From: Squalus acanthias
Taxonomy: Eukaryota
Reading direction: 5' to 3'
Length of the DNA: 64,000 nucleotides
Assembly (NCBI GenBank): GCA_030390025.1
Contig: CM059428.1
Span: 164,734,001-164,798,000 of the forward strand
The notes under the pieces are model-generated. The model saw nothing but the letters and a program-made list of their open reading frames with translations. It was not told the DNA's origin and did not search any database. Of the stretch, positions 15,862 to 47,250 are shown one piece after another. How positions within the stretch are numbered: the first letter of the stretch is position 1; the number at the start of each line of letters is the position of its first letter. Position numbers and translations under genes: made by a program.

Positions 15862-16047
15862 GGAATTGCTGTAAATCTGAAATAAAAACAGAAAATGCTA
15901 GAAATACACAGCTGGTCAATCAGCATCTCTAAAGAGAAAGAGCACGTTATGACATTTTTGGGTGTAAACACTTCATCAGAATGTCATAACTTGTCTTTTC
16001 TCCTTACGGATACTGACTGACCTGCTGTGTATTTCCAGCATTTTCTG
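15862..16047. mobile_element. Old fold-back Penelope-derived element
   Basis: Inverted arms (cagaaaatgctagaaatacacagc...gttatgacatt / aatgtcataac...gctgtgtatttccagcattttctg); homologous to 45405-45627. Confidence 0.75.
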
Positions 16048-18423
16048 CATATTTTTTGGAAAAAAAATTGATTTCTGTAATTTAGCAGCAATAACTTCTG
16101 TGCAAATGCACTTGTGGCAGAGTGAAGCTTGACTAGACCTTGGCTTTATATATTCCACTAACTGCACTGAATGATTAAAAAGCAGTGCCAATGGCAAGAG
16201 GTCACCTACTACTCGTGCTGGACAGTGATTTTTGCAATCTAGAAGGACCAGAAAAACAAACTAATGGGTCAAATTGTGGCAGAAACGGCGACTAAATGGT
16301 GATATTAAATTGCATTGGATTCTAGAATTAAAGATAGTGGGCCAATTAACCTACGGGTTCATCTTTCATTTTCCTTTACCTATTTTCAGTTCTCCAGTAC
16401 AGTGGAAGCAGGTGTCTATTATTACTTAAATTAAGGGCACCAGTTTAATTGAAAGATCCTCGTCTATAGTTTCCTCTTCCATCAGGCTGATGGTCTTCAA
16501 TTACAGCTGGTGCACTCCTGTTCATTCATTTGGATTAATTGATGTCTTAGGGACGCAACAAAGGCAGACAACTTACTTTTTAACTGTTTAAACTCCAACT
16601 GCTGTACCTTCAACAGATCTTTTATGGTTATCGGCAACAGCCAGTCTGAACATACTCGGGTATTGTTTTTGCCCCCTTTCTTTAAAATTTTCCACTAAAT
16701 TAGAAGCTGGTAAAACATCTAATAAAACCATGGCTGCAGATATGGGGTGGGGGTATTTTTTGGACTTTAGGGAATCAAGGGATATGGGGATCGGGCGGGA
16801 AAGTGGAGTTAAGGTCGAAGATCAGCCATGATCTTACTGAATGGCGGAGCAGGGGCGAGGGGCCGAATGGCCTACTCCTAATTCTTATGTTAAAACCTAT
16901 TGAATGTTGTTTATAAATGTGAAACTTGTAAGGTACTGCTTAAAATGCTAATGACATTGTTTCTGTATATAGAAGAAAATCACTTGCATGTGAATGGGAA
17001 AACAAAGAAAATTGCACTCTGAATTTTCATTAAGATAACAAGTCCTGTCCCAACTTGTAATTCATCCTCAGAACATAGAGATGTGGTAACTGTGACCCAG
17101 TTTGAATTGAGCAGTAGGATACAAGGGAATGTGCAGGACTCGGAACAGACTATTGGAGTCTATCTGACCGGTCCAGTGTTTAGAAGATGTTGTGTACTGC
17201 TCTCGTACTCCTCAATCGGATACTTGCCAACTTAGAAAACTAAGCAAAAGCTGACATAAGCCCCAAATGGGTGACACCCGAAGAATGACCCTAATTATGA
17301 ACCAATGATGTGTGAAAACAGGTAGTTTCATGGCTTTGTAACTTATGCTGTTGGTGTATACAACATTGCTTCACTTGTATGGGGAAAAGCATAAGTACAT
17401 AAATGCATTTGTTTGGGGCCAAGCTCCCCTGGAAGATTTTTATTTTTTACATAAAAATTACGTATTCTGGTTAATTTTAAGCACCTTTCTATTCCACCAA
17501 AAATTGACATTTTGAATTTTTAATAGTTAAGCCAGGTCATCACTTCCTCAAAGGTTACATTCCCTCATCTGAACTGCCACCCCAGTTCAGAGGCATTCTA
17601 TCCTCGCCAGATCTAGTTCAGAGAGACCGCACCCCATCCAAAATCCCACCCTTCCACAGAGACATTCTCTGCTCCTGTAGCACTCCCCACTCATACTGAC
17701 ACACCTCTCCCTCCCCCAGTTCAGCCTGGCACTCTTCTCTGCCTCTGACCATGCCAATGCAAACTGTTACTTGTTTTCCCACACCCAGTTTATGCTGTCA
17801 ATCTTTTTCTGTCCATGCTCAGGCTGACCCTCTTTTTTCTCCAATTAATGTCAACACTTTGTCCTTACTCCATTAATGCTGGCGCACTCTTCCCCAAATA
17901 CCATCAATTAATCCTGGTGTCCTCCCCCACCCTAAAGTGCTATTCCTAGATTCTGCCCCTTCCCTCTCCCCTTCATTGCTGTTCATTGCCATCCATTTCC
18001 CTCCCTTTCTTTTCTCCTTCATTGCAATCCCTCCCCCCCGCACTCATTGCCATCCATTCATCTCCCCAATGCCAGCCACCCCATCTTGTTTCTACAGGAG
18101 TCCAGTTGCTAATGACCCCAGATATTCTGGCAGGGTAAACTGATGAGAATAATGCTGGTGCGCAACTGCACCTGTATGGGTTCACACTGAGGGGTGGGGA
18201 GGGGAAGTGAGAAAAAAGAAGCACTGGCAAAACGGCTGTTGCTACTGGTTCCAAAGCTTGTGGGCTTTTTTTGGTAGTGGTGGGGGGGCACGGACGGATG
18301 AGCCAAGTTGGTGTCCATTTCGTCTATGTGTAACCCCTTTGGATATTTGTTGTGTTGAAGGCACTATACAAATAAGTATCCTTTTTTTTGAAATATAATT
18401 TGTGAACCTCTTTATGTTCTCAG

Positions 18424-18533
18424 GTGGATTCATGCTATTTGCCAGAATCTAAACACAGAAGATGAAGTAGAGACTGCAGCAGACAATGGCTATGACTGTT
18501 TCACATGTAGGCAATATGCGACGACAACTCCAG
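18424..18533 (+). CDS. KMT2C: KMT2C exon (ex21), end of PHD cluster, 110 nt
   Basis: ttctcag|G...G|gtaaga; WIHAICQNLNTEDEVETAADNGYDCFTCRQYATTTP. Confidence 0.95.
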
Positions 18534-18751
18534 GTAAGATTTGAAACATTAGACCAGTTTGCTCAAAGATTTTATTTTTAAAGAATCTTAAAATTGCAAC
18601 CCATGACAATGATGATTTTATAAACAAAAACTTGTTAAATTTTTGAAGCTTAATTATGTGCTGAATTCACTGAGTGACTGCAATTACAATTTAATAATTA
18701 ATCCCCAAATATTCAAACTTTCTAACAGGTTTCTAATTTCTTTTACCTCAG

Positions 18752-18820
18752 TGACTACCTCAGAAGGGACTGATTTGTCTTTGGTAACACCTCAAGTTAT
18801 TGTAAAGACAAAGGAACCAG
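18752..18820 (+). CDS. KMT2C: KMT2C exon (ex22), 69 nt
   Basis: ttttacctcag|TG...G|gtaaat; VTTSEGTDLSLVTPQVIVKTKEP; phase 1-1 fits both neighbours. Confidence 0.85.
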
Positions 18821-19559
18821 GTAAATTAGCAGACTTGGTAGCCAAAGATTCGATCTGTCCTTTCCTTCCCCGTCCCAATTTTCTACCCTCCTGTCATGAA
18901 GGTGCTGAATCGCATGGTTCCAGAGGCACGAGCAGCAATATGGTGCTTCACCAAAGTGGCCATTCTTCATTTGTGAGCCGCGACGGTGAGTGTTGGTGGG
19001 CATTTGACAATTAGGGCATTGCAGCCAAGCTTATTCCTGTCTTCATCTGCATATGTCCCCTTTATAGCAGGCGTCGCTGGATAGTGATTGGAAAAATAAG
19101 CTGCTTTTACTTTTCCTAGCTTGGGAATGCAAGTCACTCAGATCAGGCACAGACCAAGGATCAGACCTGATCTCTTCCTGTTATGAATGGCTCAGTACCA
19201 CATTTAGTCAGAAAGCTATTCGGGGATCTCTGAAGACTCAAACTCTTTAACAAGCTTCACAATTTGGGTTAAGCACACCATAAACCTCATATGGACTGTG
19301 CAAAATAGCTTATTTGCCAGATGTCTGATGCAGAACAGTACCACTGTCCATGCAGAAAAAGCAATTAAAGCATATGGGGAGGATTTAAACAAAATAGGCA
19401 GGGGAGCGGTAAACAGCAAACCGAGAAAGAGGGAAAAGCAATAGTGATGGCGGTAGAAAAGGCAACGGAAGCTAGATGCTGTGGTACAGGTCAGAGTAAG
19501 AGAACATGTTGGCGACAATGGTCACAATAGTGTGGAGTTTAAGGTGAGGCTTATGTACA

Positions 19560-20760
19560 GAGCAGGGACTGGTGCATGATTGTTTGAGTGCAGACACTGA
19601 CAGGAAACTAACTATGGCATCTGCTATAGACCGCCAGGTCAGGAGGATGGATGGGACCAAGCAATTTTCTAGTCCAATAAGGGAAACCGATATACTTGTT
19701 ACGGATGACTTCAGTTTACCAGGGATAGATTCAGAAACCTTAAAAAGATGCAGTAGGATTGAAAACATGATTATAGCTACAATATTGGATTGTTACGTGG
19801 AGCAAGGGCATTGTAGAACCCGTCAGGAGAACATTGAGCAGGTCAGAGTAAGAGAACATGTTGGCGACGGGTCACAATAGTGTGGAGTCTAAGGTGAGGC
19901 TTATGTTGAAGAAAAAATTGATTGCAATAGAAACATTCAACTTTAGAAAGGCGGATTTTGAGGCATGAGTTTAGGAAACTGGACTTGGGGCACTTCTGAG
20001 ACGTTTAATCATAGACTAAGGGAGATGTTGAATAGAGCCCTGGGGGCCAGAACTTGGACTCCTGTATCTAATCAATGTTAATGACTTTGATTCTGAAACC
20101 AGCTGTAACGGGTCCAGTTTATCTTGAAGGTATAGTCAAAAGGTGCAGCAACAGGCCTGGATTAATTATGTAGTTGTACTGTGTAGTTAAATTTAACACA
20201 AAATTGCACATAGGTTGAAAAATGTGGAACGTAAATATACAATAAATGGAATCCAGTTGGTATAGAGAGATTTAGAATTGAAGCTGGAAGTAATAGTAGA
20301 CTTATCACCTTCAGTATCTGGACAATGTGGCAAAACAATTTAAACAAAACTAGTAATGGAACGCTGCAAAATATTGCCAGCATAGTAGAATGCAGGTCTG
20401 CAGAAGAGATCCCAAGACTTTGCAATGCAGTGGTTAGACCACACTTCAAATACTGTGTTCAGTTTTAGTTAGCAGGCCACAAGAAATATACACTTAGAAT
20501 TGAAAGTGTACAAAAAGGAGCAACAAACTTGATCCCAAGACGCTCCTTAATATCTACCTCTTTGATCAAGCTTTTGGTCACCTGCCCTAATTTCTCCTTA
20601 TGTGGCTCGGTGTCAAATTTTTTGTCTTTTAATACTCCTGTGAAGCGCCTTGGGATGTTTTACTACGTTAAAGGCGCTATATAAATACAAGTTGTTGTTG
20701 TAAAGGGGATGAGTGCTGAGCAAAGATTAAAGAAGTGTAGTCTGCAAACAAAGTTAAGTG
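19560..20760 (+). mobile_element. Old, deleted CR1 remnant (endonuclease CYRPP and DFSLPGID motifs, RT tail) with a nested L2 3' end at ~20540-20701
   Basis: tgctatagaccgcca, gacttcagtttaccagggatagat, gttagaccacacttcaaatactgtgttcag; the L2 tail ends aaggcgctatataaatacaagttgttgttgt. Confidence 0.65.
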
Positions 20761-21220
20761 GGGCGGGGAGGAAGGGAGGAAAAAGTTACTTTCAAGTTAA
20801 ATTTTGAAATCCTATAACAAGCAAGATAATAGAAGCAAAAGCATTAGGATTTTCCCAATACAATTAGGTGCCAGGATGCGGGAGTCAGTATTCTAAAGGA
20901 ATGAGCTTTGATCGGCAGAATGACCTTTTCTCATCTCTGACTCAGTTTTGTGTGCACTGGCATATTAACTGAAACTAGCAACTGGTACATCATAGACTTG
21001 CGACTGATTCCTCGTGTGGTAAATTGGCTAGCCTCATCAAAGCTGTGTTAAGGCGGGGATGTTAATGGCGAGTATAAAAATTGGTGAAAATAGTGAACAG
21101 CTCTTGGATGCCTCCTACAGAAGTTTTTAGAATTGGGTCAGTAGGAATTTCCTATCTCATTTGGATAAGAAAATCCTTAACAGGTCATTCAGTATAACCT
21201 GTGTTTTTCTCGGAAAACAG

Positions 21221-21439
21221 AACCGACACGGACGTATACACAGGATGGTGTCTGCCTGACTGAGTTGGGTATGTCACAGCTCCAAAGCCTCAGTATTGCT
21301 CCACCACGTCGGAAGCGACCCAAGCCAAAGTTGAAGCTAAAGATCATAAATCAGAACAGTGTGGCTGTTTTGCAAACTCCACCTGATCCCCAGTCTGAAC
21401 AGTCCAGAGACATGGATGGAGATATGGATGATAGCAGAG
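21221..21439 (+). CDS. KMT2C: KMT2C exon (ex23), 219 nt
   Basis: aaacag|AA...G|gtacaa; PTRTYTQDGVCLTELGMSQLQSLSIAPPRRKRPKPKLKLKIINQNSVAVLQTPPDP...DDSR. Confidence 0.95.
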
Positions 21440-23602
21440 GTACAATATTACGGCTGATCCCCTTCATTACTTAAGTGAAGGGAAGAAAAAGGTTTTCTTG
21501 TTGAATGTTTATATGTCACTTGTGTATGTGCTTGTCCAAATGAGATAACTGAGTAGAGGAAATGCCTGAAAACATTTGCTATAATGGCCCCATGCATTTC
21601 AAATAACAAAACCTCTGACCAGTGCATTGAAATACCAGTCTCATGCTTTACTGCACCAGCATGGCTTTACCACTTCCTACTTAGTCTGGCTTTTCTGAGT
21701 GGAATTACTTAACTCTGATTTGCAGAAACTTCAGTCAAGGAAATTTAGTTTGTAGCCTCCTTGGTTGGGAGCAGACTAATTGTGATGCTGCATTTTACTG
21801 GGTTTCATAAACATTCAAGTGCATACATTTACGGGAAAAGACTAATTGAATAAACGAAAAATTGTTAATCCTAATCTTAGTCACTCCCAGCCTAAACTTG
21901 GTTAATGCCATTTCTGTCATTCAGGTCTCAGTTCTCCTCTCCTGAGATGCCAATTAAGATGGCTTCTAGGGATTAGGGCTCCTCTCTTTTCTATGCTTCA
22001 CGCAAAATCAGATCGCTCAAAATCAATTAATTGCGTTCAGTTGTTCGCTACACTTGTAGCCAAGTGCAGTTTATATGAAGTTATTCCATGTTTTTCTATA
22101 AAAGTTATCTTCGCCACATTTGCAGTCACTTTCTCTTTTTCTCGCTCGCTTCTCTTTCTCGCGCGCCCCTCTTTTGCGCGTGCTCTCCCCGGCCCCCCTC
22201 ATTCCTGATACCTTTTAAAACTTGTTGTTTAGATCCTTCATAAAGTTGTAAGATGTTCAGCAAATTAAAAATAGTGGGATCTTCAAGTGAAGCTGAGATT
22301 ATTTTAATGTGGATCAGAACTGAGACCGATTTAAAAATGACATATTGCAGACTGGCCTCAGCTCATGCATCAGAAATGAATAAATTCCTAAGAATATTAT
22401 GCTCTCTGTTGTCCAGACGCAGTTGCCATTGAATGAGAATTATCTTGAAAAGGAGTTGCACTCGAGTATTTATACTACCCAGTGAGTGCCCAATGGTGCA
22501 AATCCAGATGAGTGTATTCATCCTGATTTTGCCTTGTAATTTGAAATATTTATTTCACTAAGTAAGAAGATTTGTTTGCAATGGTGCTTCTTCCATCTGT
22601 ATCCATATGGGGCTTCTGTGGTGGCAACAACTATAGCAACACAAGCTGAAACTCATTGGCCATATAAATTGGATAGTGCTACATCCCATTCTCTTTTTAC
22701 TTTTATTAAAAAAAACTATTTTGTCCAATTCTGTTTGCTTTTCTCTCTGTTCCACTGTACCGTTAGTTGAACTTGTATATGTCTTGCAATGTGACCTCAT
22801 TGTGATGAATGTGTCTTTTAATGTCCAGCATAAAAAAACTATAAATGTTCTAATTAAGACCTGATTGCTGTCTGCTTGAATCCTAAATCTGCAGTGCCAT
22901 AGTAAACCTGTTCTAGGTTTATAATTAAGTTTTACCTGAGCACTGCACAAACTCCAAACTTTGAAGTCTAAAATTTGAAGTACATAACTATTAGTAATAA
23001 TCAGAACATTTGTTCTTTCTATGTGTAATTAGTAGCTTTTAGTAACATAATGAAACCACAACCCAAGTTAAATGTAAAATGATTTGGTGAAACAAAATTG
23101 GGAAATCGGGTTTGCACAATTGGATCCAAATTGCTGTGAATTCAAAACTAATTAGTCCTGAGTGAAATTAGTTTTGTGATTCTCCAATTAGTTTTCAAGC
23201 CATAGAAATCTGTGGCAAAAAACTTTTCCTCAATTCCAAACTAAATACAGTGTTGGCCTTTGTGTAGTGCAAAACCAGTAACATTTTGGATTCATTCTGA
23301 AGGGAGCTACTTTTAGATTATTTCCTTATGCTTCTCAGTCAGTTACTTCACAAATTCATATCCCTTTAAGCTTAAAACTATAATTATTTGCAGCGTAATT
23401 GTACACCTGCATAAATGTACAATCATTTGTGTAGTGTAGTTCAGAGATGTCCAACTTTTTGGAGATAGGTGGCCGTCAAAACCAGTGAGTGGGCCATACA
23501 ATTACGCTGAAAGGTGAGAGTTCATAAACAAAAAAATCCAAAAACCACTGTAAACCCCTATACACAAAGAACAATGCAAATAAATAGATTGTTTTGAGCA
23601 CA

Positions 23603-23972
23603 GACACTACAGTGCAGTACTGAGGGAGTGCTGCACTGTCAGAGGTGCTGTCTTTTGGATGAGGTGTTAAACCGAGACCCCGTCTGCTCTCTCAAGTGGA
23701 CATTAAAGATCCTATGGCACTATTTCGAAGAAGAGCAGGGGAGTTCTCCCCGGTTTCTTGGTCAATATTTATACCTCAACCAACGTCACTAAAACAGATT
23801 ATCTGCTTATCACATTGCTGTTTGTAGGAGCTTGCTGTGCGCAAATTGGCTGCCGCGTTTCCCACATTAAAACAGTGACTACACTTCAAAAAAAAAACTA
23901 CTTCATTGGTTGCAACGTGCTTTGGGGCGTCCTGAGTTTGTGAAAGGCGCTATATAAATGCAAGTCTTTCTT
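23603..23972 (+). mobile_element. 5'-truncated Deu-domain SINE
   Basis: Collinear and highly similar to 25367-25727. Confidence 0.85.
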
Positions 23973-24946
23973 TAATAAACATATACAATCAAGGGATTCC
24001 CCCACATAAAAAACGAAACCCCCATATACACAGAAGAATTCTCACACAAAATGCATCACTTCCAACGCCCCTTCTCGCATGGCAGTCAGTTGGCTCCAGA
24101 ATAAGTGTTGACTGGAATATCAAATCTCAGCTGACCATGGCTTTAACCACAGAACTAGCAGGGAGTTTGGAATCTTCCCTACAACACTGTATAAAACAGT
24201 CTCAAGTTCCAAGCAGCTTGGCTGGTAGTGAACCATTTTGCGGGCTAAATAGACAGCAGTGCCTAAGGAGGTGAGGACTGATGACGAAACTCTGCTCTCT
24301 TACCCTATTCTGCCCTTCGCCCCTGTCCTCACTGACCTGCATTTACCTCCAAGTCTCCTAACGTCTCAAATTTGAAATTCCCACCCTCGTGTTTAAACCA
24401 CTGCATGACTTCGCCCCCCATCCCCGTAATCTTCTGCAGCCCACAACCTTTCTCCCCTCCACCCCCTAAACTGTTTGTTCACCATATTTCAGTGGTTTTG
24501 CCCAGGGAAGATTTCCTCGATGGGCTGTTAACAAAATCATAAACCCGTTCTTTAGAAACAGGTTTACAATTTTAATATGTACAGTACACTGGAGAAATCT
24601 CCCTCACTTGGCTTAGAGCCTCAGTGCTGCCTCCTGTGAGCAAAGAAAGTGAGCTCCCTTAAAGAAGCCTTATATACAGCAATGGGAAAAGCTAACCTGA
24701 CTTGTGCAGGGCACAGATTTCTTAGAGACGTTATTGCAGGTGATTTGCCTTCATGAGATGACTAATTCATACTTGCATGTGGAGTGTGGACTTCAGTCAA
24801 CTAATGAGGGCTGCTTCGGTGGGAGGTAATCTAACATCACTTGCTCTGGATACATGTGCAACCCAGTTTAATACTATGTTGAGTAAAAATGATATAAAGG
24901 TTATCTATTCTACATTCAGTTAACCCTTCAATCTTAAATTTTACAG

Positions 24947-25081
24947 CAGCTGATCTAATGGACTGCGATGCAAAGTCTGATGCACTTACTAGTCCAGAAA
25001 GGGAACCAGCAGATGATGACTGTAAGGGAGCCGAGGGGTCTGACCGTCTAAAGAAGAGAAAAAGGAAACCATACAGACCTG
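24947..25081 (+). CDS. KMT2C: KMT2C exon (ex24), 135 nt (132 nt if the second AG of the NAGNAG is used)
   Basis: tttacag|CAG...G|gtaaag; AADLMDCDAKSDALTSPEREPADDDCKGAEGSDRLKKRKRKPYRP. Confidence 0.93.
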
Positions 25082-25268
25082 GTAAAGAATCTGATTAAAA
25101 CAGACATATCCACCATGCTCTGAAGTAGAACTAGATCAAAGAATATTTTCTGTGTGCTGGTGGTGGCTTGACTTGAGACCTGTGTAAATTTTTTACACAT
25201 TTGATGTAAATTGATATTTTACTACAACAGAAATGTTTAAAGTTTAATCTAGCCAAAGTATCTTTGTA

Positions 25269-25727: not shown

Positions 25728-26354
25728 CCTTGTAGCGCCTTAAAATACTTAGCACAAGTTGGCAGACACTAGAGAATAATAAGTCACCCTTTTCCTCCTC
25801 TGTTTTATTTGATATGTAAAAGCAGCTCAACAAGTGCCAGACAACAGTGAGATCTGTTGGGAGTTTGCAGCAGTTCCTCTTTCTCTTACTCACTTTCTTT
25901 CTAGCTGACTCCCACTCCCTTCTCCATTTATGCTACTAGGCCCTGAATCCAAATCTACTTCGTATCTACTGTCTGCACTTGTGTCTCTGTAATTTTGTCA
26001 TGATATCATTCGATGATTCCTTTGTAACATCCCGACTACCGCCCTCCAAATTTTCCTATTTTAATTTTCACCCTTTCCACAATTTTTTCTTGAGCACAGA
26101 AACCATCCCAATCGATTGTTATTTTTGCGTTACTTTTATCTCACCAACTTTGCACCCATCTGACTAAATTATAGACTTTGATGTGCGGTGACATTTTAAT
26201 TACCAAGTGCTGCAAAACAAGTATATTCTTGCTAATGTGATATTAATCCTCAATTAACTTCTTTCTCTCGAGAGCTACTCCTGGAGTGGCTTAGTGTACT
26301 GGAGCGTCAACACAATAGACCACAGAATAATGAGATGTGTATTGCAATTTCTAT

Positions 26355-27103
26355 GGCCCGGATTTTCCGATCGGAGGCTTCCTGCGTGCGGATGCCTCCA
26401 ATCTGGAAAAAATCTACAAACTTACCTGCTGGCTTCGTAGGTCCCGACACTTCCGCTCCTGGGCCTCTCCTGGTGCGTGCGCGCACAGAGGCCCAGGTGT
26501 CCCAGAGGCGCAGGCAGTTCGCAAGTGTCCCTGGGATCACGTGGGCCATGGGGAACCAATGGAAGAAGGGAATCCCCCTTCACACTTTTGACAGGTCTCT
26601 CCGGATAGACCTGTCAAAAGTATGAATGGGGATCACTCAAAAAAAACACACTAAAACATTAAATACTTTTTTTTAAATCACGTATTTAAAATTAGTTAAA
26701 ATTACATTAAATTACATTTTAAACAAAAATTTAATTTTTGGAAAGAAATTTTTTTACGGGTCTAAAATAAAACTTTTTTTAAAACTATGTTTAAATTATA
26801 AATGAGTGAGGGGAAAAAAAATATTATTTTACTTTTTTAAACTCTTATGCTGGCCTTATGCCTGCTTTTACCAGGCGTAAGATTATTAAAGGTTTTCAGC
26901 CGGCGGAGGTTCTGCAGAAAGCGGAACTCTTCACCCGCAGAGGCCCTTCTCCCAGGCAGGCGTCCGATCTGTCAAGATAATTCTTGACAGATCGGAAGTG
27001 CCGGTTTTCAGCACATGCACTTCGCATGCCTGAAACTGGCACTTGCGAGGCCCCTACGGGTGTGTACACAGCTCGTACACAGAGGGATCGGAAAATATGG
27101 GCC
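26355..27103. mobile_element. MITE-like non-autonomous DNA element, ~750 bp (PIF/Harbinger-like ends)
   Basis: TIRs ggcccggattttccgatc / gatcggaaaatatgggcc (16/18 match); GC-rich ends with an AT-rich centre; second copy at 52582-53325. Confidence 0.8.
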
Positions 27104-29837
27104 ATTATGTTGCTGTGCAGAGGCTGCCAAACAAAGACAATTAACATCTCCACCGAGCATTGGAAATTAGCTGAGCAAATACTGGGTGACGTTTAACGCC
27201 TCTCTGCAGCTCAACTAGAGCAGCATTAGTAGAGGCCTGGGATTTCAAGTTTCCTATCGACTATGGTTAGTGTAAGGTCCAGGGTGAGCAGGAAAAAGGG
27301 TAACGTTACAACAAAAGTTAGCCCTGCTGTGTCATTATACTATCACTTTTACATTGGGAACCGTGGGATGGGATATGTTGGGGGGAATTAAATGCGTGGG
27401 GTTACGGGGGTAGGGTGGGATATGTGTACTGTGGGGATTAAAGCAGGGACAGGGTACTGGATTTGGATGATCAGCCATGATCGTGTTGAATGGCGGAGCA
27501 GGCTCGACGGGCCGAATGGCCTACTCCTGCTCCTAGATTCTATGTTTCTATGTTTCTATGTTAAATCAGCTTGTGCTTCCCAACCTTGGATCGAGGACAA
27601 ATATCCAATATCAAGGCATTTTAATTTGTTCTATTTAGTGCCATGAATAATCAAATAATGCAATATTGTCATTTTTTGTAATATATCTGCCGTGCTCTCC
27701 TGTGGTGGGGGGAGGGGGTTCCCTGCCTCCATCATTCACAAGCTTCAATTTATACAAACCTCTCTGTCCCACATAACTGTGAAACACATTTTTGTGAAGC
27801 TCCGCTGGCTCCCTATGCTCCAGTAAATCAACTTTAAGATACTTGTTTTCAATTTCTTCCTCCCTATCTGAACAGCCTTCTCCAGCCACATGTCCCTACC
27901 AACACCCTCGCTCCTCGTAGATTGACGCTTGCGATCCACTCTACTGTCAGGCTGAGCCTGTAGAAATTATATTTGAGCCCTCTGGAATTCTGTCCCTAAA
28001 CCATTTTGCCTTCCTATCTTTCTCCCTGCCTTCAAAAGCCTCTTAAACCCATATATTTGACCAAGCCTTGGGCATCCTCCCTTTCCCCATGTCCCCCACT
28101 AAACCAGTCTCCTACTTGGTAGTCCACATCACTGTTCTAAGTGCTGTTATACGTCCTTTTACATGACTGCAATATAAATGTAGATGATGAATTGAATGTT
28201 GCAGTTTCCACAGCTACAAAAAAAGCCTAGTTTGTAACGATCAGTTAAAACAAAAATAAATTCAGCCCAAGTTTATGGTTCAAAAATTAAAAAGTCCCAG
28301 AAGTCTTTTGAGTTATGCTCTGATAGCAAAAGCAACAAGTTAAAGTAAGGAAGCTTGTGTCAGAAATGTGCTTGGCTTGTCCTTTTCCCCACACTTCTCA
28401 ATCTGATGGATCAACACCTTAATTGTATTTTGATGGTATATCAAGATTAAGGGAGCTTTGCTCTGGAATATGCTTGATTTTCTTTTTTAATTTACACACT
28501 CAATCGGGTGGATTAACACCTTATATTTTGATGGTGTATAATTTAAGATATGTGCAGTCAAAGTACAATAAAATGTTAATCCCTTTGATTGTGAAGTATC
28601 TAAACAAATTAAACACATTTCCCAATTTCCTTTATCTCTAAACTGTAACTACAAAGAAATTGTACAGTACCAAACAAAACAGCTCGGAGGGCATGAGCTA
28701 ATTTTTAAAATTGAGGAAGTCAACTACCCTGGTTACTCAGTAAGTTTACCCATTGAGTAGCTCAGCCATAAAGACCAGAAGTTCCTAGGTCACATTCTGT
28801 CCTGAGTTAGCTGGTCTCAGTCACAACGATGATGGAATCACAATTGTAATGATCTTGCTGGAAGTGTATTGGGTGAGCATGAGATCCAGCTCAATAGCGA
28901 TACTTTTTGCAGTAAAGGAACCTGCCATATTTCACTTTAACATCATGTGTTAACAATGGGCACTTGAGAGAGTGTAACCATACCTGGGCAAAAATTCAGT
29001 TCCTTCAGGAGAGGATTGGAGAAAATTGATGATTAAAATAATATTCTGGACCGAGGGAAGGAGTGAAATTGAGAGATCCTGTTTAAACCGCAATAGCTGA
29101 GTTATTAACTTTGGTATTAAGAGATGATCTGACTGCTGAGTGTACTAATGCCAAGACGTTTGACACCACCTCCAGGAGCTAGTGTCTCATTGCTTGAGCT
29201 TTGCTTGGTGTAACAGCTAAGTTTTAAAAGTTCCCAACTTTTTAAATTAATTTTGCCAGCCACGTTCTAACTGTATTAAGTTCCATTCGTCCATCATCCC
29301 AGTCGGCACTGACCTTCACTAACTTGCGATCCCCCAGCACATTAATTACAAAATGCTCTCATATACAAATTCCTCTGGTCTTGTCTCACTTTGACTCCAC
29401 TACATCTTCTACCTGCTAACTTGTACTCTCCATTCCATGATCAGTGATGGGCCCTTCAGTTATTTGGCCTTGCTCGCTGCAATACTCTTAAATTCCTCTG
29501 CCATTTTCCAAAACTTCCTGAAAACCTATGTCCTCGACCTCGCCTTTAGTTTCCTCTCCTAACTCTTCTCCTAGTTCCTGCTCCGTGTCAGAATTTCTCT
29601 CTTTTCACCCCTGTCCATCCTGTGAAGTATGTTGGGGTGTTGCACTGTATAAGCATAAGTTGTTGAAAGTCTTAGTCTTAAGGCAATGTGAGCTCGTTCG
29701 CAACATAAAAATTTAATCCTTCACCAAGTAATTGCATTCTTAAGTATAGGTTTGAGATTCCCAACTATAATATTACTGTGATTAGTTTCTACTCAGAGCC
29801 GTGTTTGCTATATTTGCTTCTTGTCTTGCTTTGATAG

Positions 29838-37319: not shown

Positions 37320-37450
37320 GTAAGAGACTAAATGGTGGATAGCAGTAGTCCCATGTCTGGTGCTTTTGTCTTTATCGAAAACAATTGTGTTCATGCCTGT
37401 GTGTGTGTTTTTCAGAATCTTTGTTTTCTAAAGTTTCATCTGTTCTGTTG

Positions 37451-37474
37451 CACTAACAAACTTTGATGGTTAAC
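37451..37474 (+). promoter_or_regulatory. Bipartite QKI-response-element-like motif downstream of the candidate cassette exon
   Basis: cACTAAC (37452-37457), 13 nt spacer, TAAC half-site (37471-37474), about 130 nt after the donor. Confidence 0.4.
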
Positions 37475-37890
37475 TAGTTTGCTTGAAGTATTAGCACACA
37501 AATGACAAAACTGCATTTTGCATCATGATTAGAAAGTAGAATAACTAGGATTTTAAACTGCGTTACTGATATGTTGACCTTTAACCTCATGATCCTAATA
37601 TCCATTTGAAAATATAGCCAGATGGATGTTACAATTCTAGTGAATTTGTAGTTCGTTTCCCTGACCTGGATATCTGTTTTGAGAACTTGGTGCAAATAGT
37701 GACACTTGTACAGGAAAAGAAGCAAATTAATGGCAGTCTTCTGAGTCGAATGTGAGGAGGCATTCTATAACTATATATACCTATAACTGGGGTGAACAGT
37801 GTCGATACAGCTGAAGGTGCGGAAGATAGGGGAAACTATTAAGATACTTGAAAGATTAAAGGAAACATTTTTCAAATTGGTTTTGGATAA

Positions 37891-38623
37891 TGGGCCAAAT
37901 CTTGCTGAAAAACTAACCGTGTTAACAACACACGGCGTTATTAATGTACAAATCGGCCAGCAAGTTCAGGGGATTAAGAGATACGCTGTGAGTTATGAAT
38001 CTCCAGAACTTGCTGGTCGATTTACACGGTTTGTTTTGCACAAATAGCATCTTGCCTTTAGCCTCCCTGTTATTTTTAAGAATTTGCTGGATTTGCACAT
38101 TAAATGCCCATTAAACTCGCTACAGAAAGTTAGGGCTGGTGATTAAGAGCGTAACTACCCTTTTAACTACACGATAATTGTTAATGCAATGCCAATCAAC
38201 CTCTCTGGCCAAGAAAGGGAACAATTTAAAGTGTTCAATCTCATTCCTGCGTGTAGTAAATTGTTTTTAGAGATTTTGTAAATTTTAAATTGTTTAATTT
38301 TTTTCTTACTTTTCCTTTCTTCATTTCTCCTTCTCAATCCAATCTTTCTTTCTCTTTCTGTACCTGATTTAACTCTAATTCACCCTCTTTCTGAGTCGTT
38401 CCTCTGTTTCTTTCTCAATCCTTAAGTCTCATTGATTAAGGAGCTACACTGTTGATCCTGCCGTTCATTAAGGTCCCCAATGCCCCATTGCCCTCGCCGC
38501 GCTGTTATCAGCTCACACTTCCAGCAAATTAGCCACAAAACTTTTTCAAGCTGAAGGATGCAACAAAATGTCTAATTAACAGCATACGCCGTGAGATGCC
38601 CCACTCCAACAAGATTTAGACCA
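37891..38623. mobile_element. MITE-like element, second family
   Basis: Imperfect TIRs tgggccaaatcttgctg / caacaagatttagacca. Confidence 0.55.
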
Positions 38624-40039
38624 TCACAGAGATGGTTACAAAGAAGATATCCAAAGAAACTAAAATGAAATGGAGCTAGATGAAAAATTGAAAGGGAGAG
38701 AAAGAATAAGGCTATATAGGCATGCATGCTTCTTATCACTGCTTATCTGATTATCGCCAAGACTGCAACTTCCTTGGAACAAAGGATCCCTAGCTCTGCT
38801 ATTGAAGATATGAAAAATAATGTCATGGCGAGAGGAGGCTCAATGTTTAACAAGGAACTGTGACTTAGTGGGATCATTTGCCTATAATTCTTAGTCACAT
38901 TTTCTTGCTTAGTGCATGCGGATTTTATATGGAGTTATAAAAGCAGTTGATACCACATAAGGGACATGGCAAAGATAATGGCACGTGAAACTAAGGAGAC
39001 TTTGGCCACATGGTTAGAGAAATGGTTGGAAGAGAGGAAGCAAAGGGTTGGGATAAAAGGAAATTTCTCCAAGATGTGATGTGATATGTGGTGTTTCACA
39101 GGGGTCTGTATTGCAGCTGCCCTTATTTACTGTACATAAATGATGCTTACGAATATTGATAGCACTGCTGAAATTTGCTGATGATGCCAAATTAGGGGTA
39201 TGGCAGATTTTAACATGAATTTTTGAAAGACTCCAGAAGGACATAGACTAGAAGATGGGCAGATAAATGGCAGATGCAGTTCAATGTGGAGAAATGTGAA
39301 GTCATGCATTTTGGAAGCAAGACTAGGGAAAGCCAATAAAAAAGGCAAATTGAACCCTTGCTATTTTATTCAGAGGTATAAAATAGAAAAGAAAGAAGGT
39401 AATGTTGAACTTGTACAAGACTTTAGTTGGAGTAATGTGTATAGTATTGAGCACTGTGTAGTATGAAGGATATAAAAGTAGTAAAAGGGGCAGTGTAGAT
39501 TCAATAAGATGTTCGTGAGGATGAGGGGTTACAATTATGAAGAGATACTTGAATAGTTAAGTCTTACAGAAGTCTTCAAGATTATGAAGGGTTATAATCA
39601 TAGAACCATTGAATAGTATAGCACAGAAGGAGGCTATTCAGCCCATCGAGTCTGCGCCGGCACTTTCGAAGAGAATTCCAGTTAGTCCCACTTCCCCTGC
39701 TCTTTCTCCGTATCTCTGCAATTTTTTTCTCCTTCAAGTATTTATCCAATTCACTTTTGAAGGCTACTATTGAATCTGTATCCACCATCCTATCAGGAAA
39801 TCCATTCCAAATCCTAACCACTCGTTATGTAAAACAGTTTTTCCTCATGGAATTGAGGGTAATATATTAGCATGGATAGAGGATTGGTTGAAGGACAGAA
39901 AACAGACTGTCGGAATAAAGGGTAATTTTCAAGTTGGCAGGCTGTTACTGGTGGGGTACTGCAAGGATCAGTGCTGGGGCCTCAGCTATTTACAATCTAT
40001 ATTAATGACTTAGATGAAGGGACCAAGTGTAATGTATCC

Positions 40040-40833
40040 CTTACACCTCCCCTCTTCCCACTGTCCAGGGCCCCAAACACCCCTTCCAGGTGAAACAGCG
40101 ATTTACTTGTACTTCCTGCAATTTAGTATACTGTATTCGCTGCTCACGATGTGGTCTCCTCTACATTGGGGAGACCAAACGCAGATTGGGTGACCGCTTT
40201 GCGGAACACCTCCGTTCAGTCCGTAAGGGGGACCCCGAGCTCCCGGTGGCCTGTCACTTTAATTCACCGCTTCACTCCCACTCTGACCTCACCGTCCTCG
40301 GCCTATTACACTGTTCCACTGAAGCGCAGCGTAAGCTCGAGGAACAGCACCTCATCTTTCGTTTAGGCACGCTACAGCCCTCTGGACTCAATATCGAGTT
40401 CAACAATTTTAGATCATAACCTCAGCTCCAATCACATTTATATTTTATTTTTTCCACCCTTTTATTTGGCCCCCCCCCCCCACCTTTTTTTTTTCTCCTA
40501 GAAGCTGGCAGCTGTCCTTCATTCTGCCAGTGGATTTCACACTTCTTTCAGCCTTAATCTGTCACATTTACACCACCTCTAGCCTTGCATATCTCTTAAT
40601 GTCTCTTAATGTCTCTTCATCTCCCCCTTTGTTCTTTTATCCCCCCCCTTTTCCCAGCTTTACTCTGGCCTTAAATCTATTTGATTTCCGGCTCTTCACA
40701 GTTCTGATGAAAGGTCATCGACCTGAAACGTTAACTCTCTTTCTCTCTCCACGGATGCTGCCTGGCCTGCTGAGTTTTTCCAGCGTTTTCTGTTGTTATT
40801 TCAGATTTCCAGCATCCGCAGTATTTTGCTATC
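40040..40833 (+). mobile_element. 5'-truncated Penelope-like element (GIY-YIG endonuclease C-terminus plus pseudo-LTR with hammerhead)
   Basis: ORF 40090..40419 FTCTSCNLVYCIRCSRCGLLYIGETKRRLGDRFAEH...GLNIEF; 13-bp TSD GTGTAATGTATCC at 40027-40039 and 40834-40846. Confidence 0.92.
40700..40736 (+). ncRNA. Minimal type-I hammerhead ribozyme motif (PLE-associated)
   Basis: AGUU-CUGAUGA-A-AGGUC(AUC)GACCU-GAAA-CG-UU-AACU; palindromic AACGUU stem III. Confidence 0.8.
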
Positions 40834-42334
40834 GTGTAATGTATCCAAGTTTGCTGACGATAAAAAGCTTGGTGGGAAAGTAAGCTGTGACAAGGACACG
40901 AAGAGCCTGCAAAGGGATATAGACAGGTCAAGTCAATGGGCAATAAGGTGGCAGATGGAGTGTAATGTGGGGAAATGGGAGGTTATTCACTTTGGTAGGA
41001 AGAATAGAAAAGCAGAATATTTTTTACATCCTGAGAAACTAATGTTGGTGTTCAGAGGGATTTGGGTATCCTTGTACACAAAACACAAAGTTAACTGCAG
41101 GTACAGCAAGCAGTTGGAAGGCAAATGGTATGTTAGCCTTTATTGCAAAGGGATTGGAGTACAAGAGTAAGGAAGTTTTGCTGCAATTGTACAGGGCTTT
41201 GGTGAGACTACACCTGGAGTACTGTGTATAGTTTTGGTCTCTACCTAAGGAAGGATATACTTGCCTTAGAGCAGGTGCAATGAGGGTTCACTAGATTGAT
41301 TCCTGAGATGAGAGGGTTGTCCGATGAGGAGAGATTGAGTAGAATGGGCCTATACTCTCTGCAGTTTAGAAGAATGAGAGGTGATCTCATTGAAACATAT
41401 ATAAGATTCTGAAGGGGATTGACAGGGTTGATGCCGAGAGGCTGTTTCCCTTGCTCTTGAGAGTCTAGAACTAGGGGCATAGTCTCAGGATAAGGGGTTG
41501 GTCATTTAAGACTGAGATGAGGAGGAATGTCTTCACTGAGTTGTGAATCTTTGGAATTCTCCACCCCCAGAGGGCTATGGATGCTCAGTCGTTGAGTATA
41601 TTCAAGGCTGAGATCGATAGATTTTTGGAGTCCATGGGAATCAAGTGATATGGGGATCGGGTGGGAAAGCGGAGTTGAGGTCGAAGATCATCCCGGAGCA
41701 GGCTCGAAGGGCTATATGGCCAACTCCTGGTCCTATTTCTTATGTTCTCATTGTCACCTCTGGTTCTTTTGCGAATCACCTTAAATGTGAATAGTATATA
41801 GATTCTTTGTGTTGAAACAGTAACAAAAGGGCACAAATTTTAGAGAATCACAAAGAATTAACGAAGAGGTTACAAACAACTTCTTTACACTACTTAGAAT
41901 TTTGAATTCTCTGCCATAAGCCATTGTTGAAGCAGAGTCCGTAAATAGTTGCTTGAAAAAGAGGAATAGTAAAGGGGATGTGAGTGCGCAGAAGAATGGG
42001 ATTAGACTGGGTCGCATGTGAAGAAAAACATCAGCAATGCCTGGAATCATAGAATGTTACAGCACAGACTTGTTGCTTGTATGTCTGTTTCTGTGCTGTA
42101 GCATTCTGAATCTAGGCATTGCAATACTCTGGTCGCTTCTAGCTGAGTAACGATCTGCACAGGACTTTCGCAAACCAGAAAGTTTTATTCAAGACGAGTT
42201 ACTGACAATAGATCATAAAGTTTCTCATTTCAAAGCCATAAGGCAACTAATGAGTACCCCCAGCTTCATGAAGCACAGGTTTCCAGTGTATTTACTGATT
42301 TCTGTCAAATTAATACAACTAACTTTTTGTTTAG

Positions 42335-42472
42335 CTGGACTGGATATTGGCCCCATTTCAGAGGATCCATCTACAGTTTCTCAGTCAAGTGGAGGCCAAG
42401 GTTCACGATCTTTGACTGAGGAGCAACTAGACCGAATACTTAGCCCCGATCTTGAGAAAATCGTCACAGATG
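42335..42472 (+). CDS. KMT2C: KMT2C exon (ex29), 138 nt
   Basis: actaac branch point, tgtttag|CT...G|gtaaga; AGLDIGPISEDPSTVSQSSGGQGSRSLTEEQLDRILSPDLEKIVTD. Confidence 0.93.
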
Positions 42473-42568
42473 GTAAGATATTTTGTCCCTCTCCCATGCA
42501 TTTTATTTTGTGTCAAATTGTGGGAAGTTTTTTTGACAAATGACTGAAAACTTTATTTTGTTGTACAG

Positions 42569-42601
42569 GTACAATTCTAAGTAAGCTGTACAAAATTCCA
42601 G
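42569..42601 (+). CDS. KMT2C: KMT2C exon (ex30), 33 nt
   Basis: gtacag|GT...G|gtattt; GTILSKLYKIP (human GAILGKLYKIP, recalled). Confidence 0.92.
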
Positions 42602-42701
42602 GTATTTATTTTCAACTATTTAAATAGTTTGATAAATGATCTATATTTCACCTGAGTTTTAATTCCTACTAACATTATCACCTTTGTTTTTTCAAATAAA
42701 G

Positions 42702-42803
42702 AACTGGAGGGGAAGGAAGTGGAAGATCTGTTTACAGCCGTGTTAAGTCCTTCAGCTAACCAGGCGCCACCGCCTTTGCCTCCTTTGCCTCCACCTAACC
42801 ATG
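42702..42803 (+). CDS. KMT2C: KMT2C exon (ex31), 102 nt
   Basis: TACTAAC branch point 42667-42673, ataaag|AA...G|gtatag; ELEGKEVEDLFTAVLSPSANQAPPPLPPLPPPNH. Confidence 0.92.
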
Positions 42804-43973
42804 GTATAGTGTCTCTTCATTAAAGTAATGCTATAAATTTTCACTGTCCCAGACTGCCCCAAAGCTCCATGTGCAACTTTGCATATGTTGATCTATTGCT
42901 CTTAGTTTCAGTAAATAGATTATGAATATTGACAGATTTGAACCAGTTGCTTGCTTTACTCAGATTCAGTTATACTTTAGAGTCTGTCATCTTTTTCTTC
43001 CCCACCCCCCCAACACCAAAAAAGGCATATTGGTAATAGCAGCTGAAATTTAAACACTGCAAAATTTGAAATACTACACGCTTTTAATGACATTTATGTT
43101 GCTGTTGTACCCCCTACCAATGGATTAGTTTAGTGTTCTCCGAGTGCATCAGAGTTGGGCTCTTCACACTGTCTCTTCAATCCATAATTTCAAAGGAGCA
43201 ATTAAGATTCCAATTCTATGTTACATTTTACTATTAAATTTAAAGCTTAGATTGAAGAATTCGAACTTGGGTTTCAAAAGAGGGATTTGTGAACCATCAG
43301 AATTTTGAAAGTATGCTTTTAGTGCAGAATTTAGTTTTACATGCTCAGTAGAAGTGAATAGATAGTTTTAATGAAATGTCAGTGTTGCTCTTATTCTGAT
43401 CATTTGGCATCTAATTCACACTGGTATTGGTGTAAATTTGGAGATTGATTCATAGCATCGCCTAGACAAATTCAAAATCAGCACAGCTGTATTATTTTAG
43501 GTGAGGCCCTCTTAAATGGATGTTCTGATACTGAAATGCCTCAGTAATAACACAGGGGCTACCATAGTGGTCCAGAGCACACATCATAACATCAAAATGT
43601 GAACAAAAACTGAGCTCTCTACTTACCAGTGCAAATCCAACCTCACTCGAGGAGAGGGAGATTTAAAATGGAAAGTATCGCTGCATGTGCACAGGTCCTT
43701 AAGCATTACACATGTATACCTACACATGCTTGGAGGCACTGGGAGTTTGAGAAAACTGCAGTGCCACTACCCCTGGTGAGAGTCAGCATTGTTTAATGGG
43801 CCTCACGCATCCCACTGAGGTAGACAAGTATAAAAGCAGCATTATTGTATCTATTTGACGAATCATGATCATATATATAATTTATTGCCTTATTTTTCCT
43901 GTCTCAGTTCACCATATTAATCCAGAAATTCTATAATTCATTTTCTGGACTTCACTATTTTCCATTCTAAATA

Positions 43974-44338
43974 CAGGAAACTCTTTATTAACCGGGACCG
44001 GCGTGGTGCCGGTTTATCGAAAGTACCGGATAACGGAGAGTTATATCTACCGAGGCTATTTTTAACAAAGAAAAATAAATAAATCAAGAAATGTACAGTA
44101 TACAGTATTTGGGTACTTTTGAAAACTACCCCTGCTGACTAAATCGGCGTTCTCGGACTCGGGATCGGCAACATTGCCGGTTATTTGAGAGGAGTTTTCG
44201 GAGTACTCGGCGTTCGCAGAGACTCGACTGCGACTCGGCAACATTGCCGGTTATTTGAGAGGAGTTTTCGAAGGATGATTTTTGCCGGTTAAGCGAGAAT
44301 TGCGGATATTTGGGTGCCGGATAAACAAAAGTTTCCTG
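43974..44338. mobile_element. Tc1/mariner-pogo-type MITE, 365 bp
   Basis: TA|caggaaactctttattaaccgggacc ... ggtgccggataaacaaaagtttcctg|TA; internal 36-bp direct repeat at 44165-44200 and 44235-44270. Confidence 0.8.
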
Positions 44339-45404
44339 TATAAATATGTACTTCAAAAATCACTCAAAATATGGTAAAGGTCTGTCATGTCTGTAAATTC
44401 AGACATCGATTTAATATGGCACTTGAAAATTTGTATTTTAATTATCGGCATAGTTATAGATTGCACAGAATATATTAAATAATTGGAAGGCATGCTGTTC
44501 TTTGTACTCCAGTTAGGCTGCAGCTGTTTTCAAAATATACAAATTTAGTGTGTAATCATTTGTGGTTTTAGTGAAGGATATAGCATATAATGCTATAAAT
44601 TGTATTTGCAGTGTTTGTGCTTTATAACCATTAATGAAGAATTTCACTTTTTGTATGAGAAATTCCAACTCGTCATTTTATTTTCCACTTCTCCCCATAA
44701 CCAAATTCCTTTGGGGAAAGTTCTTGGTGCTCACCATTGGTCATCCCTAAAGAAAGGCCCTTTCCTTAACCACACTGCAAACCGCAGACTGTTCCTACAG
44801 TAGGGATTAGCACATTAAATCTGATTTTTGGTTCTTGGAATGCAAGGTTGGGACTTGAATAACTTAAATCTGTAATAAGTTTTGTAAGCAACTGCTGTCA
44901 CAGCACTTACTGAGATGGACAGTGGTAGTCAGAAGTCCAAATTAATCTAAACCAGGGAAATTATGGGATAACCTAAATTGGACCAATTTCAGTACAAACC
45001 GAATTACATAGCACACCTCTTCCCCCTAGGGAAATTCAGAGTGAGAGTGTCAAAAATAGGGCGGGAGCTCAGATCTTCTGGTTGAGAATCCATGAAAATG
45101 TTTGCATTACAACTACTTGGCTCTCATGCTACAATCCTTTTATAACAAAAATGAGTTGTACTGGCCAACTGATTTGCAAAATAAAGAGGAAAATTGGCTT
45201 CACCTATTCAAATAGTGTTCAAGACTGAAGGACAAAAGCATTTTTAAATCTTTTTTCTGGTAACTTGCAACTATAAGGGTTACCATTTGAAATTTGCCCT
45301 TTGAGGTTGGATGTGTTTTCCAAGCACATCACCAGAGTTTGGCAGTACTCCTGTATCATTTCAAGAAAGCCCAAATACAAATAAACCAGATGCTTTATTA
45401 CCAT

Positions 45405-45627
45405 ACAAAAGCAAAATACTGCTGATGCTGGAAATCTGAAATAAAAACAGAAAATGCTGGAAATACTCAGCAGGTCAGGCAACATCTGTGGAGAGAGAAA
45501 CCGAGTTAACGTTTCAGGTCGATGACCCTTCGTCAGAACTGGTCAGAAGGGTCATCGACCTGAAACGTTGACTCTGTTTCTCTCTCCACAGATGCTGCCT
45601 GACCTGCTGAGTATTTCCAGCATTTTC
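45405..45627. mobile_element. Fold-back Penelope-derived mini-element
   Basis: ~84-bp inverted arms (45448-45531 / 45546-45629); 14-bp TSD TGCTTTATTACCAT at 45391-45404 and 45628-45641. Confidence 0.9.
45504..45540 (-). ncRNA. Minimal hammerhead ribozyme motif
   Basis: Reverse complement: AGUU-CUGACGA-A-GGGUC(AUC)GACCU-GAAA-CG-UU-AACU. Confidence 0.8.
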
Positions 45628-45963
45628 TGCTTTATTACCATGTTGTGAGTTCAAGTTTTGCTCCAGGACTGGAGCCATAATCTAGGCTAAAACTTCAGTG
45701 CAGTACCAAAGTTCCATCTTTTGGATGAGACAGTAAATTGAGGCCCCTATCTGCCTATTCAGGTGGATATCAAAAAAAACCATGCCACTTTTCTAAGAGC
45801 AGAGTTCTCTGTGTGCATTTCTGCCTCCATCGCCACCACTAAAACACATAAATTAGTCATCCATCTCATTGATCATGATGCGGAGATGCCGGTGTTGGAC
45901 TGGGGTGGACAAAAGTGAGAAGTCGCACAACACCAGGTTCTCATCCAACAGCTTTATTTGAAA

Positions 45964-46000
45964 TCACAAGCTTTCGGAGCGCTGCTCCTTCGTCAGGTGA
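45964..46000 (-). ncRNA. Minimal hammerhead ribozyme motif (antisense copy)
   Basis: Exact reverse complement of 46799-46835. Confidence 0.8.
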
Positions 46001-46574
46001 AGTGAAGAAATACAAATGGGCACAGCATATATAGACAGAGAACAATGCCTGTGCAGAGAACAATGCCAGACGACTACAATTAATCTTTCTAACTGCCCTT
46101 TATCACACCTCGGCAGAGAGACAATCACGGCAATCAAATCCAACCAGGTCAGTCAGGAAGACATTACATCAAAGACGATAGCAAAATACAACAAGTTCCG
46201 CACCCATGAGGACGGCCTCAACCGGGATCTTGGGTTCATGTCACGCTACATGTAACCCCACCTGACGTAGAGTCATCCAGACTCGAGTCGTCGTTGGCTT
46301 GTTCACAGATGCGGCCGGGCCTGCTGTGATTTTCAGTAAAAAAAAAAGTTTAAAGTTTTTGGTTTTCCATACAGACTGTAGCATCTGCCACATTAGACCC
46401 CCTGTGACCCCACCTCATTGTCTTTGTTGTATTTTGCTATCGTCTTTGATGTAATGTCTTCCTGACTGATCTGGTTGGATTTGATTGCCGTGATTGTCTC
46501 TCTGCCAAGGTGTGATAAAGGGCAGTTAGAAAGATTAATTGTAGTCGTCTGACATTGTTCTCTGCACAGGCATT

Positions 46575-46752
46575 ACATAGAAACATAGAAAATAGGTACA
46601 GGAGTAGACCATTCGGTCCTTCGAGCCTGCACCGCCATTCAATGCGTTCATGGCTGAACATGCTACCTCAGTACCCCATTCCTGCTTTCTCGCCATACCC
46701 CTTGATCCCCCTAGTTGTGAGTGTTATATCTAACTCCCTTTTGAATATATAT
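46575..46752 (-). mobile_element. CR1 3' end inserted in the right arm of the fold-back element
   Basis: acatagaaacatagaa tail; absent from the left arm; flanked by ATT on both sides. Confidence 0.85.
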
Positions 46753-46798
46753 ATTGATCTCTGTCTATATATGCTGTGCCCATTTGTATTTCTTCACT

Positions 46799-46835
46799 TC
46801 ACCTGACGAAGGAGCAGCGCTCCGAAAGCTTGTGA
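46799..46835 (+). ncRNA. Minimal type-I hammerhead ribozyme motif
   Basis: UCAC-CUGACGA-A-GGAGC(AGC)GCUCC-GAAA-GC-UU-GUGA; palindromic AAGCUU stem III. Confidence 0.8.
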
Positions 46836-47250
46836 TTTCAAATAAAGCTGTTGGACTATAACCTGGTGTTGTGCGACTTCTCACTTTTGTCATCTCATTG
46901 ATGTTTACGGGACCTTGCTTTGCACAAATTAGCTGCCATACTTGCCTGCAAAAAGAATAGTGAGTATATTTCAAAAAGTAATTCATTGATCATAAAGCAC
47001 TTTGGGACATTCGGAGAACTTGAAAGGTGCTATATAAATGCAGATTTTTTTTTTCCAGATTGGCTGCCGTTTTTGCCTACATAACAGCAATGACTGCACT
47101 CCCCCCCCCCCCCCCCAAAAAAAAAATGGTTCTAAAGTGCTTTGGGACTTTTTGAGGCTATTACACTATGTAAATGCAAGTCATTAATTACATGGCATAA
47201 TAATAGTTTGACGGTTGTTCATTTTTCTTTCCCCTGCCCCTTTCATAAAG

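Follow-up and report, generated by a model that had tools for sequence, protein, structure and literature searches.

Head-to-head Penelope-like element ends in a likely KMT2C gene of Squalus acanthias and their probable origin in single integrations

The published excerpts on which we draw describe insertions of Penelope-like elements (PLEs) as an inverted, 5'-truncated copy plus a tail of 30-40 bp at one end, and the origin of such inverted structures is called an open question (PMC8557442). For one PLE insertion an inverted pseudo-long terminal repeat (pLTR), a 31-bp tail and a 9-bp target-site duplication (TSD) were reported (PMC3846280), and minimal hammerhead ribozymes lying 100-700 bp apart on opposite strands were read as truncated PLEs (PMC4209133). 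A purified PLE protein, a predicted dimer whose open reading frame (ORF) starts at hammerhead stem II, can nick both strands and extend them, initiates at two internal sites bracketing the tail and works independently of ribozyme cleavage (PMC11167929). Retrozymes are defined by tandem hammerheads on the same strand (PMC7229834; bioRxiv 10.64898/2026.07.22.740005; PMC6765202). Here we analyzed 64,000 nucleotides (nt) from Squalus acanthias (GenBank assembly GCA_030390025.1, contig CM059428.1, positions 164,734,001 to 164,798,000, forward strand), referred to below as the window. It holds three fold-back inserts, A, B and C, which are head-to-head pairs of 5'-truncated PLE ends, each probably made in one integration in which both cut strands primed.

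Fold-back inserts and their lineages

Among the 224 inverted pairs spaced within 1.2 kb in the window, the four longest are the arms of A, B and C, with C counted twice. The pair of A (15880-15956/15980-16056) spans 77 nt at 81% complementarity and that of B (45444-45531/45546-45633) 88 nt at 95%, while C has an outer pair of 139 nt at 97% (45908-46046/46753-46891) and an inner pair of 151 nt at 98% (46044-46194/46424-46574). Each insert consists of two opposed copies of a PLE 3' end, one with an unpaired tail and one tail-less. All three are oriented alike, the minus strand being the sense strand of the tailed arm and the plus strand that of the tail-less arm. The tails measure 27 nt in A, 45 nt in B (43 nt if two shared bases are assigned to the arm) and 35 nt in C. 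The inserts, the linear copies D and E, and the host gene lie as follows.

15862-16047, minus strand: element A, an old head-to-head pLTR pair, with 76% identity to the pLTRs of D and B; tail 15862-15888, arms about 15889-15956 and 15980-16047, decayed hammerhead core in the loop starting at 15979, minus strand
40027-40039, no strand: left TSD of D, 13 bp; right copy 40834-40846
40040-40419, plus strand: part of the D ORF, GIY-YIG (Pfam PF01541; 116 and 25 homologs)
40695-40833, plus strand: pLTR and tail of D with an intact minimal type I hammerhead; core starts at 40704, ATG at 40707
45391-45404, no strand: left TSD of B, 14 bp; right copy 45628-45641
45405-45545, minus strand: tailed arm of B, 90% identity to the D pLTR; tail 45405-45449, paired part 45450-45531, loop 45532-45545, intact core starting at 45536, minus strand
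45546-45627, plus strand: tail-less inverted arm of B, beginning within the hammerhead core; differs from the tailed arm at 3 of 82 bp
45862-45873, no strand: left TSD of C, 12 bp; right copy 46891-46902
45874-46194, minus strand: tailed arm of C, second PLE subfamily; tail 45874-45908, core starting at 45996, minus strand
46195-46255, plus strand: likely end of a PLE ORF (20 codons and stop), confined to the tail-less side of C, assigned by position
46264-46402, plus strand: element E, an extra degenerate linear pLTR, 68-72% identical to A, B and D; 13-bp direct repeats 46251-46263 and 46403-46415
46424-46890, plus strand: tail-less arm of C, core starting at 46803, plus strand; differs from the tailed arm at 3 of 151 bp and 4 of 138 bp
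46575-46752, minus strand: 3' fragment of a long interspersed nuclear element (LINE) nested in the right arm of C; 11 other related matches in the window
6934-63998, plus strand: host gene, likely KMT2C, from a PDB match and the exon map

Perfect TSDs abut the ends of B (14 bp, 45391/45628), C (12 bp, 45862/46891) and D (13 bp, 40027/40834); in a control, a repeat of at least 12 bp lay near both ends in 15 of 5000 random intervals. The best repeat around A was 7 bp long and lay off the boundaries, so it was rejected as a TSD, and the left boundary of A is uncertain because the insert has none. These results confirmed what an initial annotation had described from the letters alone, namely three fold-backs with unpaired tails (about 27-43 nt by its count) at 15862-16047, 45405-45627 and 45874-46890, perfect 12-14 bp TSDs at two of them (B and C), and a linear, GIY-YIG-coding relative (D) with a 13-bp TSD, now supported by Pfam as well. 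A reading of A, B and C as DNA transposons of the miniature inverted-repeat transposable element (MITE) kind was rejected, as their ends are asymmetric and their arms are pLTR sequence. The arms differ at 7 of 289 positions in C, at 3 of 82 in B and at about 19% in A, the copy without a TSD, and this gradient is expected from ageing after insertion. Three of the seven mismatches in C fall within 4 nt (45940-45943 against 46856-46859); they may reflect one complex mutation, or arms made from different RNA templates.

The ORF of D matched the Pfam GIY-YIG domain PF01541 (E 5e-5, above the cut-off), and its translation has two Cys between GIY and YIG. We found 116 short and 25 longer homologs, and all eight longer ones that carry a species name came from sharks or rays, in keeping with an elasmobranch host. 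The reverse transcriptase has been truncated away in the window; one homolog of 828 aa (45% identical) carries PF00078 together with the endonuclease. D is cut just after the position of the linker zinc finger, where 12 of the 25 longer homologs have a CX2-5CxxC motif, one of them ending in Phe. Such a finger in the region between reverse transcriptase and endonuclease marks Neptune/Nematis elements (PMC8557442), and the elements are, judged from sequence, likely endonuclease-containing (EN+) PLEs of Neptune type. The pLTRs of A, B and D belong to a single lineage, in which B and D are 90% identical and A 76%. The arms of C had no blastn or nhmmer match to A, B or D, and C was therefore assigned to another subfamily. 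A profile search for further pLTR copies in the window gave six significant matches, all already known, and tblastn of the 116 GIY-YIG homologs against the window found no second PLE ORF remnant. The target of D resembles a remnant of LINE reverse transcriptase. LINE reverse-transcriptase and 3'-end remnants occur in both orientations (57584-60652, 40937-41748 and others), with a Pfam RVT_1 match at 58200-58667.

C is composite, holding the LINE 3' fragment in its right arm and an ORF C-terminus and the extra pLTR E in its loop. The LINE fragment, which we take to be CR1-like, was inserted later than C, and of its 11 other matches in the window 10 had an E-value below 0.05. The 20-codon end is a putative PLE ORF terminus, going by its position and a general resemblance; a blastp comparison with 141 homologs gave a best E-value of only 2.7. 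E, whose flanking 13-bp repeats match at 12 of 13 positions, directly follows the likely stop codon and looks older than the arms of C; the RNA from which C was copied may already have contained it.

Outer ends, inner junctions and two-nick priming

We counted the ends of the arms from the position of the ATG within the hammerhead core. The tail-less ends lie at +88 in A, +84 in B and +85 in C, and the tailed ends at +115 in A (where the boundary is uncertain), +129 in B and +120 in C; the linear D ends at +127. The outer ends thus occupy nearly fixed positions, and the inner junctions differ in all three inserts; even A and B have common outer ends and distinct junctions. The tailed arm of A begins with the first base of the core, and its other arm at the core end. 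In B the tailed arm starts about 5 nt before the core and the tail-less arm inside it, with a local duplication of 7 nt. Both arms of C extend upstream of the core, the tailed one by about 200 nt and the tail-less one by several hundred. It is the tailed arm that owns the loop in A and B, and the tail-less arm in C. Both arms of C have private sequence, a unique tail on the tailed arm and 229 nt of unique 5' sequence on the tail-less arm; since each holds sequence that the other lacks, neither is a plain copy of the other. At B, the target matches the continuation of the element with one gap and one mismatch.

The initial annotation had proposed a comparison of fold-back junctions between copies. 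Within the window three could be compared and no junction was found twice, an outcome that leans toward inversion at each insertion, with the three copies being of different subfamilies or ages. Two motif scans that looked for stray copies among contigs of prokaryotic genomes gave 0 matches each. A peptide search with the translation across the B junction gave 14 matches, two of which did not match the pLTR and were dropped as unrelated; none of the 12 pLTR-derived ones had the sense-strand continuation of a fold-back, in what is a weak test (just 8 of the peptides span the core, and the set had been clustered at 50%).

The order of events that we propose would begin with the GIY-YIG endonuclease making a staggered cut of 12-14 nt. 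One 3' end would prime at a distal start site (+115 to +129) and give the tail, and the other at a proximal site (+84 to +88) and give the tail-less arm. Both cDNAs would stop early and be joined through microhomology of 2-3 nt or a short patch of templated sequence. Since the sequences of the arms overlap, one region of the RNA was copied twice, and the templates could be two RNAs on a possibly dimeric enzyme or one RNA reused. Afterwards the inserts would decay and gather nested insertions. The search of the literature on Penelope twin priming and head-to-head inserts (titles and abstract starts, with subscription reviews outside its scope) found no paper making the two-nick case for head-to-head PLE inserts, which may nevertheless already be in print.

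Hammerhead cores, host transcript and rival origins

A descriptor of the minimal hammerhead matched four times in the window (+40704, +46803, -45996 and -45536) and not once in any of 100 dinucleotide shuffles. In every intact core, stem II is 5 bp and stem I 4 bp long, and a 4-nt palindrome replaces stem III. The core of A is decayed and fails the descriptor, and that of E is decayed too. An Rfam scan of the window matched no hammerhead model; four weak miRNA matches on hairpin or repeat sequence were rejected. Within whole B and C the predicted pairing probability of stems I and II was 0.000, and the isolated cores of C and D folded poorly as monomers (predicted P of stem I 0.005-0.04). Co-folded dimers of isolated D and C cores showed inter-copy pairing and no clean active dimer in the minimum-energy fold, and were not used. 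There is one intact core per strand per family and no same-strand hammerhead pair of one family in the whole window; with one core per strand, the cores of C cannot dimerize in one transcript. In one case tested, a single minimal motif showed no cleavage (PMC4209133). The folding models predict that the fold-back sequesters the ribozyme in B and C. Hammerhead cleavage was rejected as the source of the 5' ends, as no arm of A, B or E begins at the predicted cut site. The hammerhead is probably a passenger of the pLTR.

Plus-strand exons run through the window, collinear with fish and reptile proteins, and the best PDB match of the PHD exon was KMT2C (95 bits), followed by KMT2D (84.7), so that the host gene appears likely to be KMT2C. 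A, D, and B with C lie in three different introns, with some 320 nt between A and the exon before it. Both A and B carry their core on the minus strand, antisense to the KMT2C-like pre-mRNA, and the core of D is the only sense-strand core outside a local hairpin. The earlier claim that self-cleaving motifs are placed in the KMT2C pre-mRNA applies to linear D alone, and there at the level of sequence; it is wrong for A and B, which are antisense, and C is predicted to be non-functional. Long stems of double-stranded RNA in this pre-mRNA, also claimed earlier, stand as a prediction for the inserts. The D pLTR (40699-40833) and the tailed arm of B (45405-45541), 4.6 kb downstream, form a further inverted pair of 137 nt at 91% around exons near 42335-42472 and 42700-42770. 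They were predicted to pair over 131 positions (-245 against -189 kcal/mol apart, with loop cost and folding order ignored). This pairing is predicted to be more stable than the hairpin of B itself and is a candidate for back-splicing or exon skipping.

That the fold-backs arose at each insertion, by whichever route, we regard as very likely. Within that, a strand could instead turn back at its 3' end and copy itself, the tail difference arising when the intermediate is resolved; such self-priming has been put forward for PLEs of rotifers on the strength of palindromes at their inverted junctions (PMC3846280). A and B, whose loop belongs to the tailed arm, agree with it, and the junction of B could form a short fold-back primer. 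It would, however, have to reach nearly the same end point in two opposite ways: in A and B the copy would fall short of the end of its template by 27-45 nt, and in C, where the tail-less arm owns the loop, it would need to run 35 nt past its template, unless a later deletion in the left arm came to its rescue. A PLE protein also extends both strands in vitro (PMC11167929). We consider self-priming unlikely and two-nick priming likely, favoring the latter because each arm of C holds sequence that the other lacks. Several points weigh against the explanation proposed here. Target pairing is weak at the tail-less ends of C and A, and a later left-arm deletion may itself have given C its asymmetry. 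Within about 25 nt of the hammerhead core lie the junctions of A and B as well as the 5' end of E; behind this clustering may stand preferred stalling or a preferred or nearby transcript start, neither of them proven. All three short, nearly or fully non-coding tailed inserts, D and E apart, are fold-backs; they are of different subfamilies or ages, and differing junctions are also expected if each had its own hairpin family. Finally, the enzyme data concern a Poseidon element and not one of Neptune type.

The initial annotation had headlined a candidate non-autonomous ribozyme retroelement system, and gave by-products of each PLE integration and a self-propagating hairpin family as its two readings. 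In such a family, fold-back RNA would be moved in trans by a PLE enzyme, which the recurrent layout, the clean TSDs and a tail predicted to stay unpaired would suit; pLTR sequences are reported to be enough for mobilization in trans (PMC3846280), and non-autonomous PLE derivatives exist (PMC8557442; bioRxiv 10.64898/2026.07.22.740005). Yet no junction recurs in the window, there is no same-strand hammerhead pair, the ribozyme is predicted to be sequestered, a B hairpin of 159 kcal/mol would bury the proximal start site, and 0 of 12 pLTR-derived junction peptides continue on the sense strand (the weak test above). We give such a family little credence, and it would be a considerable surprise if at least one hairpin, most plausibly B, were a MITE-like retroelement of sharks and rays that spreads with a fixed junction, draws in the Penelope enzyme by its free tail, silences its hammerhead by the antisense arm and seeds introns with long double-stranded RNA. 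The by-product reading is supported by the fixed outer ends, the published layout and the differing junctions, and the system reading is not. Co-option of the inserts for host pre-mRNA regulation (editing, splicing, back-splicing or cleavage) could point to their rank among close-range inverted repeats and to the predicted co-fold of D and B around two exons; but the core and arms of A are decayed, C is interrupted by the LINE fragment, B and C are young and the same pre-mRNA has many inverted LINE pairs, so that we think it extremely improbable.

Neighboring repeats and comparison with known systems

Other repeats in the window include a MITE-like element of roughly 770 bp that ends in inverted repeats and occurs twice (about 26350-27130 and 52580-53340); its internal 30-bp hairpins (26572-26633 and 52792-52861) differ in sequence and keep their pairing. 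An element of about 370 bp at 43971-44341, bounded by terminal inverted repeats of 29 bp and containing a 39-bp direct repeat, is likely a non-autonomous DNA transposon. A single-copy 26-bp hairpin with a 22-nt loop lies at 37950-38023.

As expected products of Penelope insertion, the inserts are of small value for annotation. Their modest value lies in the mechanism: both priming positions and the joint are preserved in young, short copies bounded by TSDs, B and C among them, and a shark or ray genome would offer a natural test of two-nick priming against self-priming. Should a family with a fixed junction exist, it would be a class of hairpin retroelement unlike the tandem retrozymes.

With Neptune/Nematis EN+ PLEs, as described in the published excerpts, the elements share a C-terminal GIY-YIG domain, a linker zinc finger (in 12 of the 25 longer homologs), a pLTR hammerhead, an inverted 5'-truncated copy, a tail at one end and a TSD of variable length (PMC8557442, PMC3846280). 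A and B differ in being the shortest possible form, pLTR against pLTR without an ORF, and the TSDs are 12-14 bp here and 8-10 bp in rotifers (PMC8557442, PMC3846280). The Poseidon element of Anolis carolinensis likewise has its start codon at hammerhead stem II and two ends bracketing a downstream tail, but it belongs to another clade, and the text consulted does not tie its two start sites to head-to-head inserts (PMC11167929). The minimal type I hammerheads of PLEs agree with ours in core, unpaired base before stem II, stem lengths and 4-nt palindrome, whereas here the motif is buried in an antisense arm and has no same-strand partner (PMC4209133). Non-LTR retrozymes are also non-coding, PLE-related and equipped with a type I hammerhead; they form head-to-tail tandem units that release circular monomers, with the ribozyme mostly free, in contrast to the head-to-head, sequestered arrangement seen here (PMC7229834; bioRxiv 10.64898/2026.07.22.740005). 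The inserts contain neither two or more head-to-tail units with complete same-strand hammerheads nor, according to predicted folding, a ribozyme able to fold in the transcript. LINE-1 twin-priming inversions have a head-to-head junction within one TSD pair and microhomology at the joint; their segments are adjacent on one RNA, whereas those described here overlap almost fully. Examples of elasmobranch-like PLE hammerheads may be little described, and A, B and C belong to, and work like, EN+ PLE insertions, a kind that is already known.

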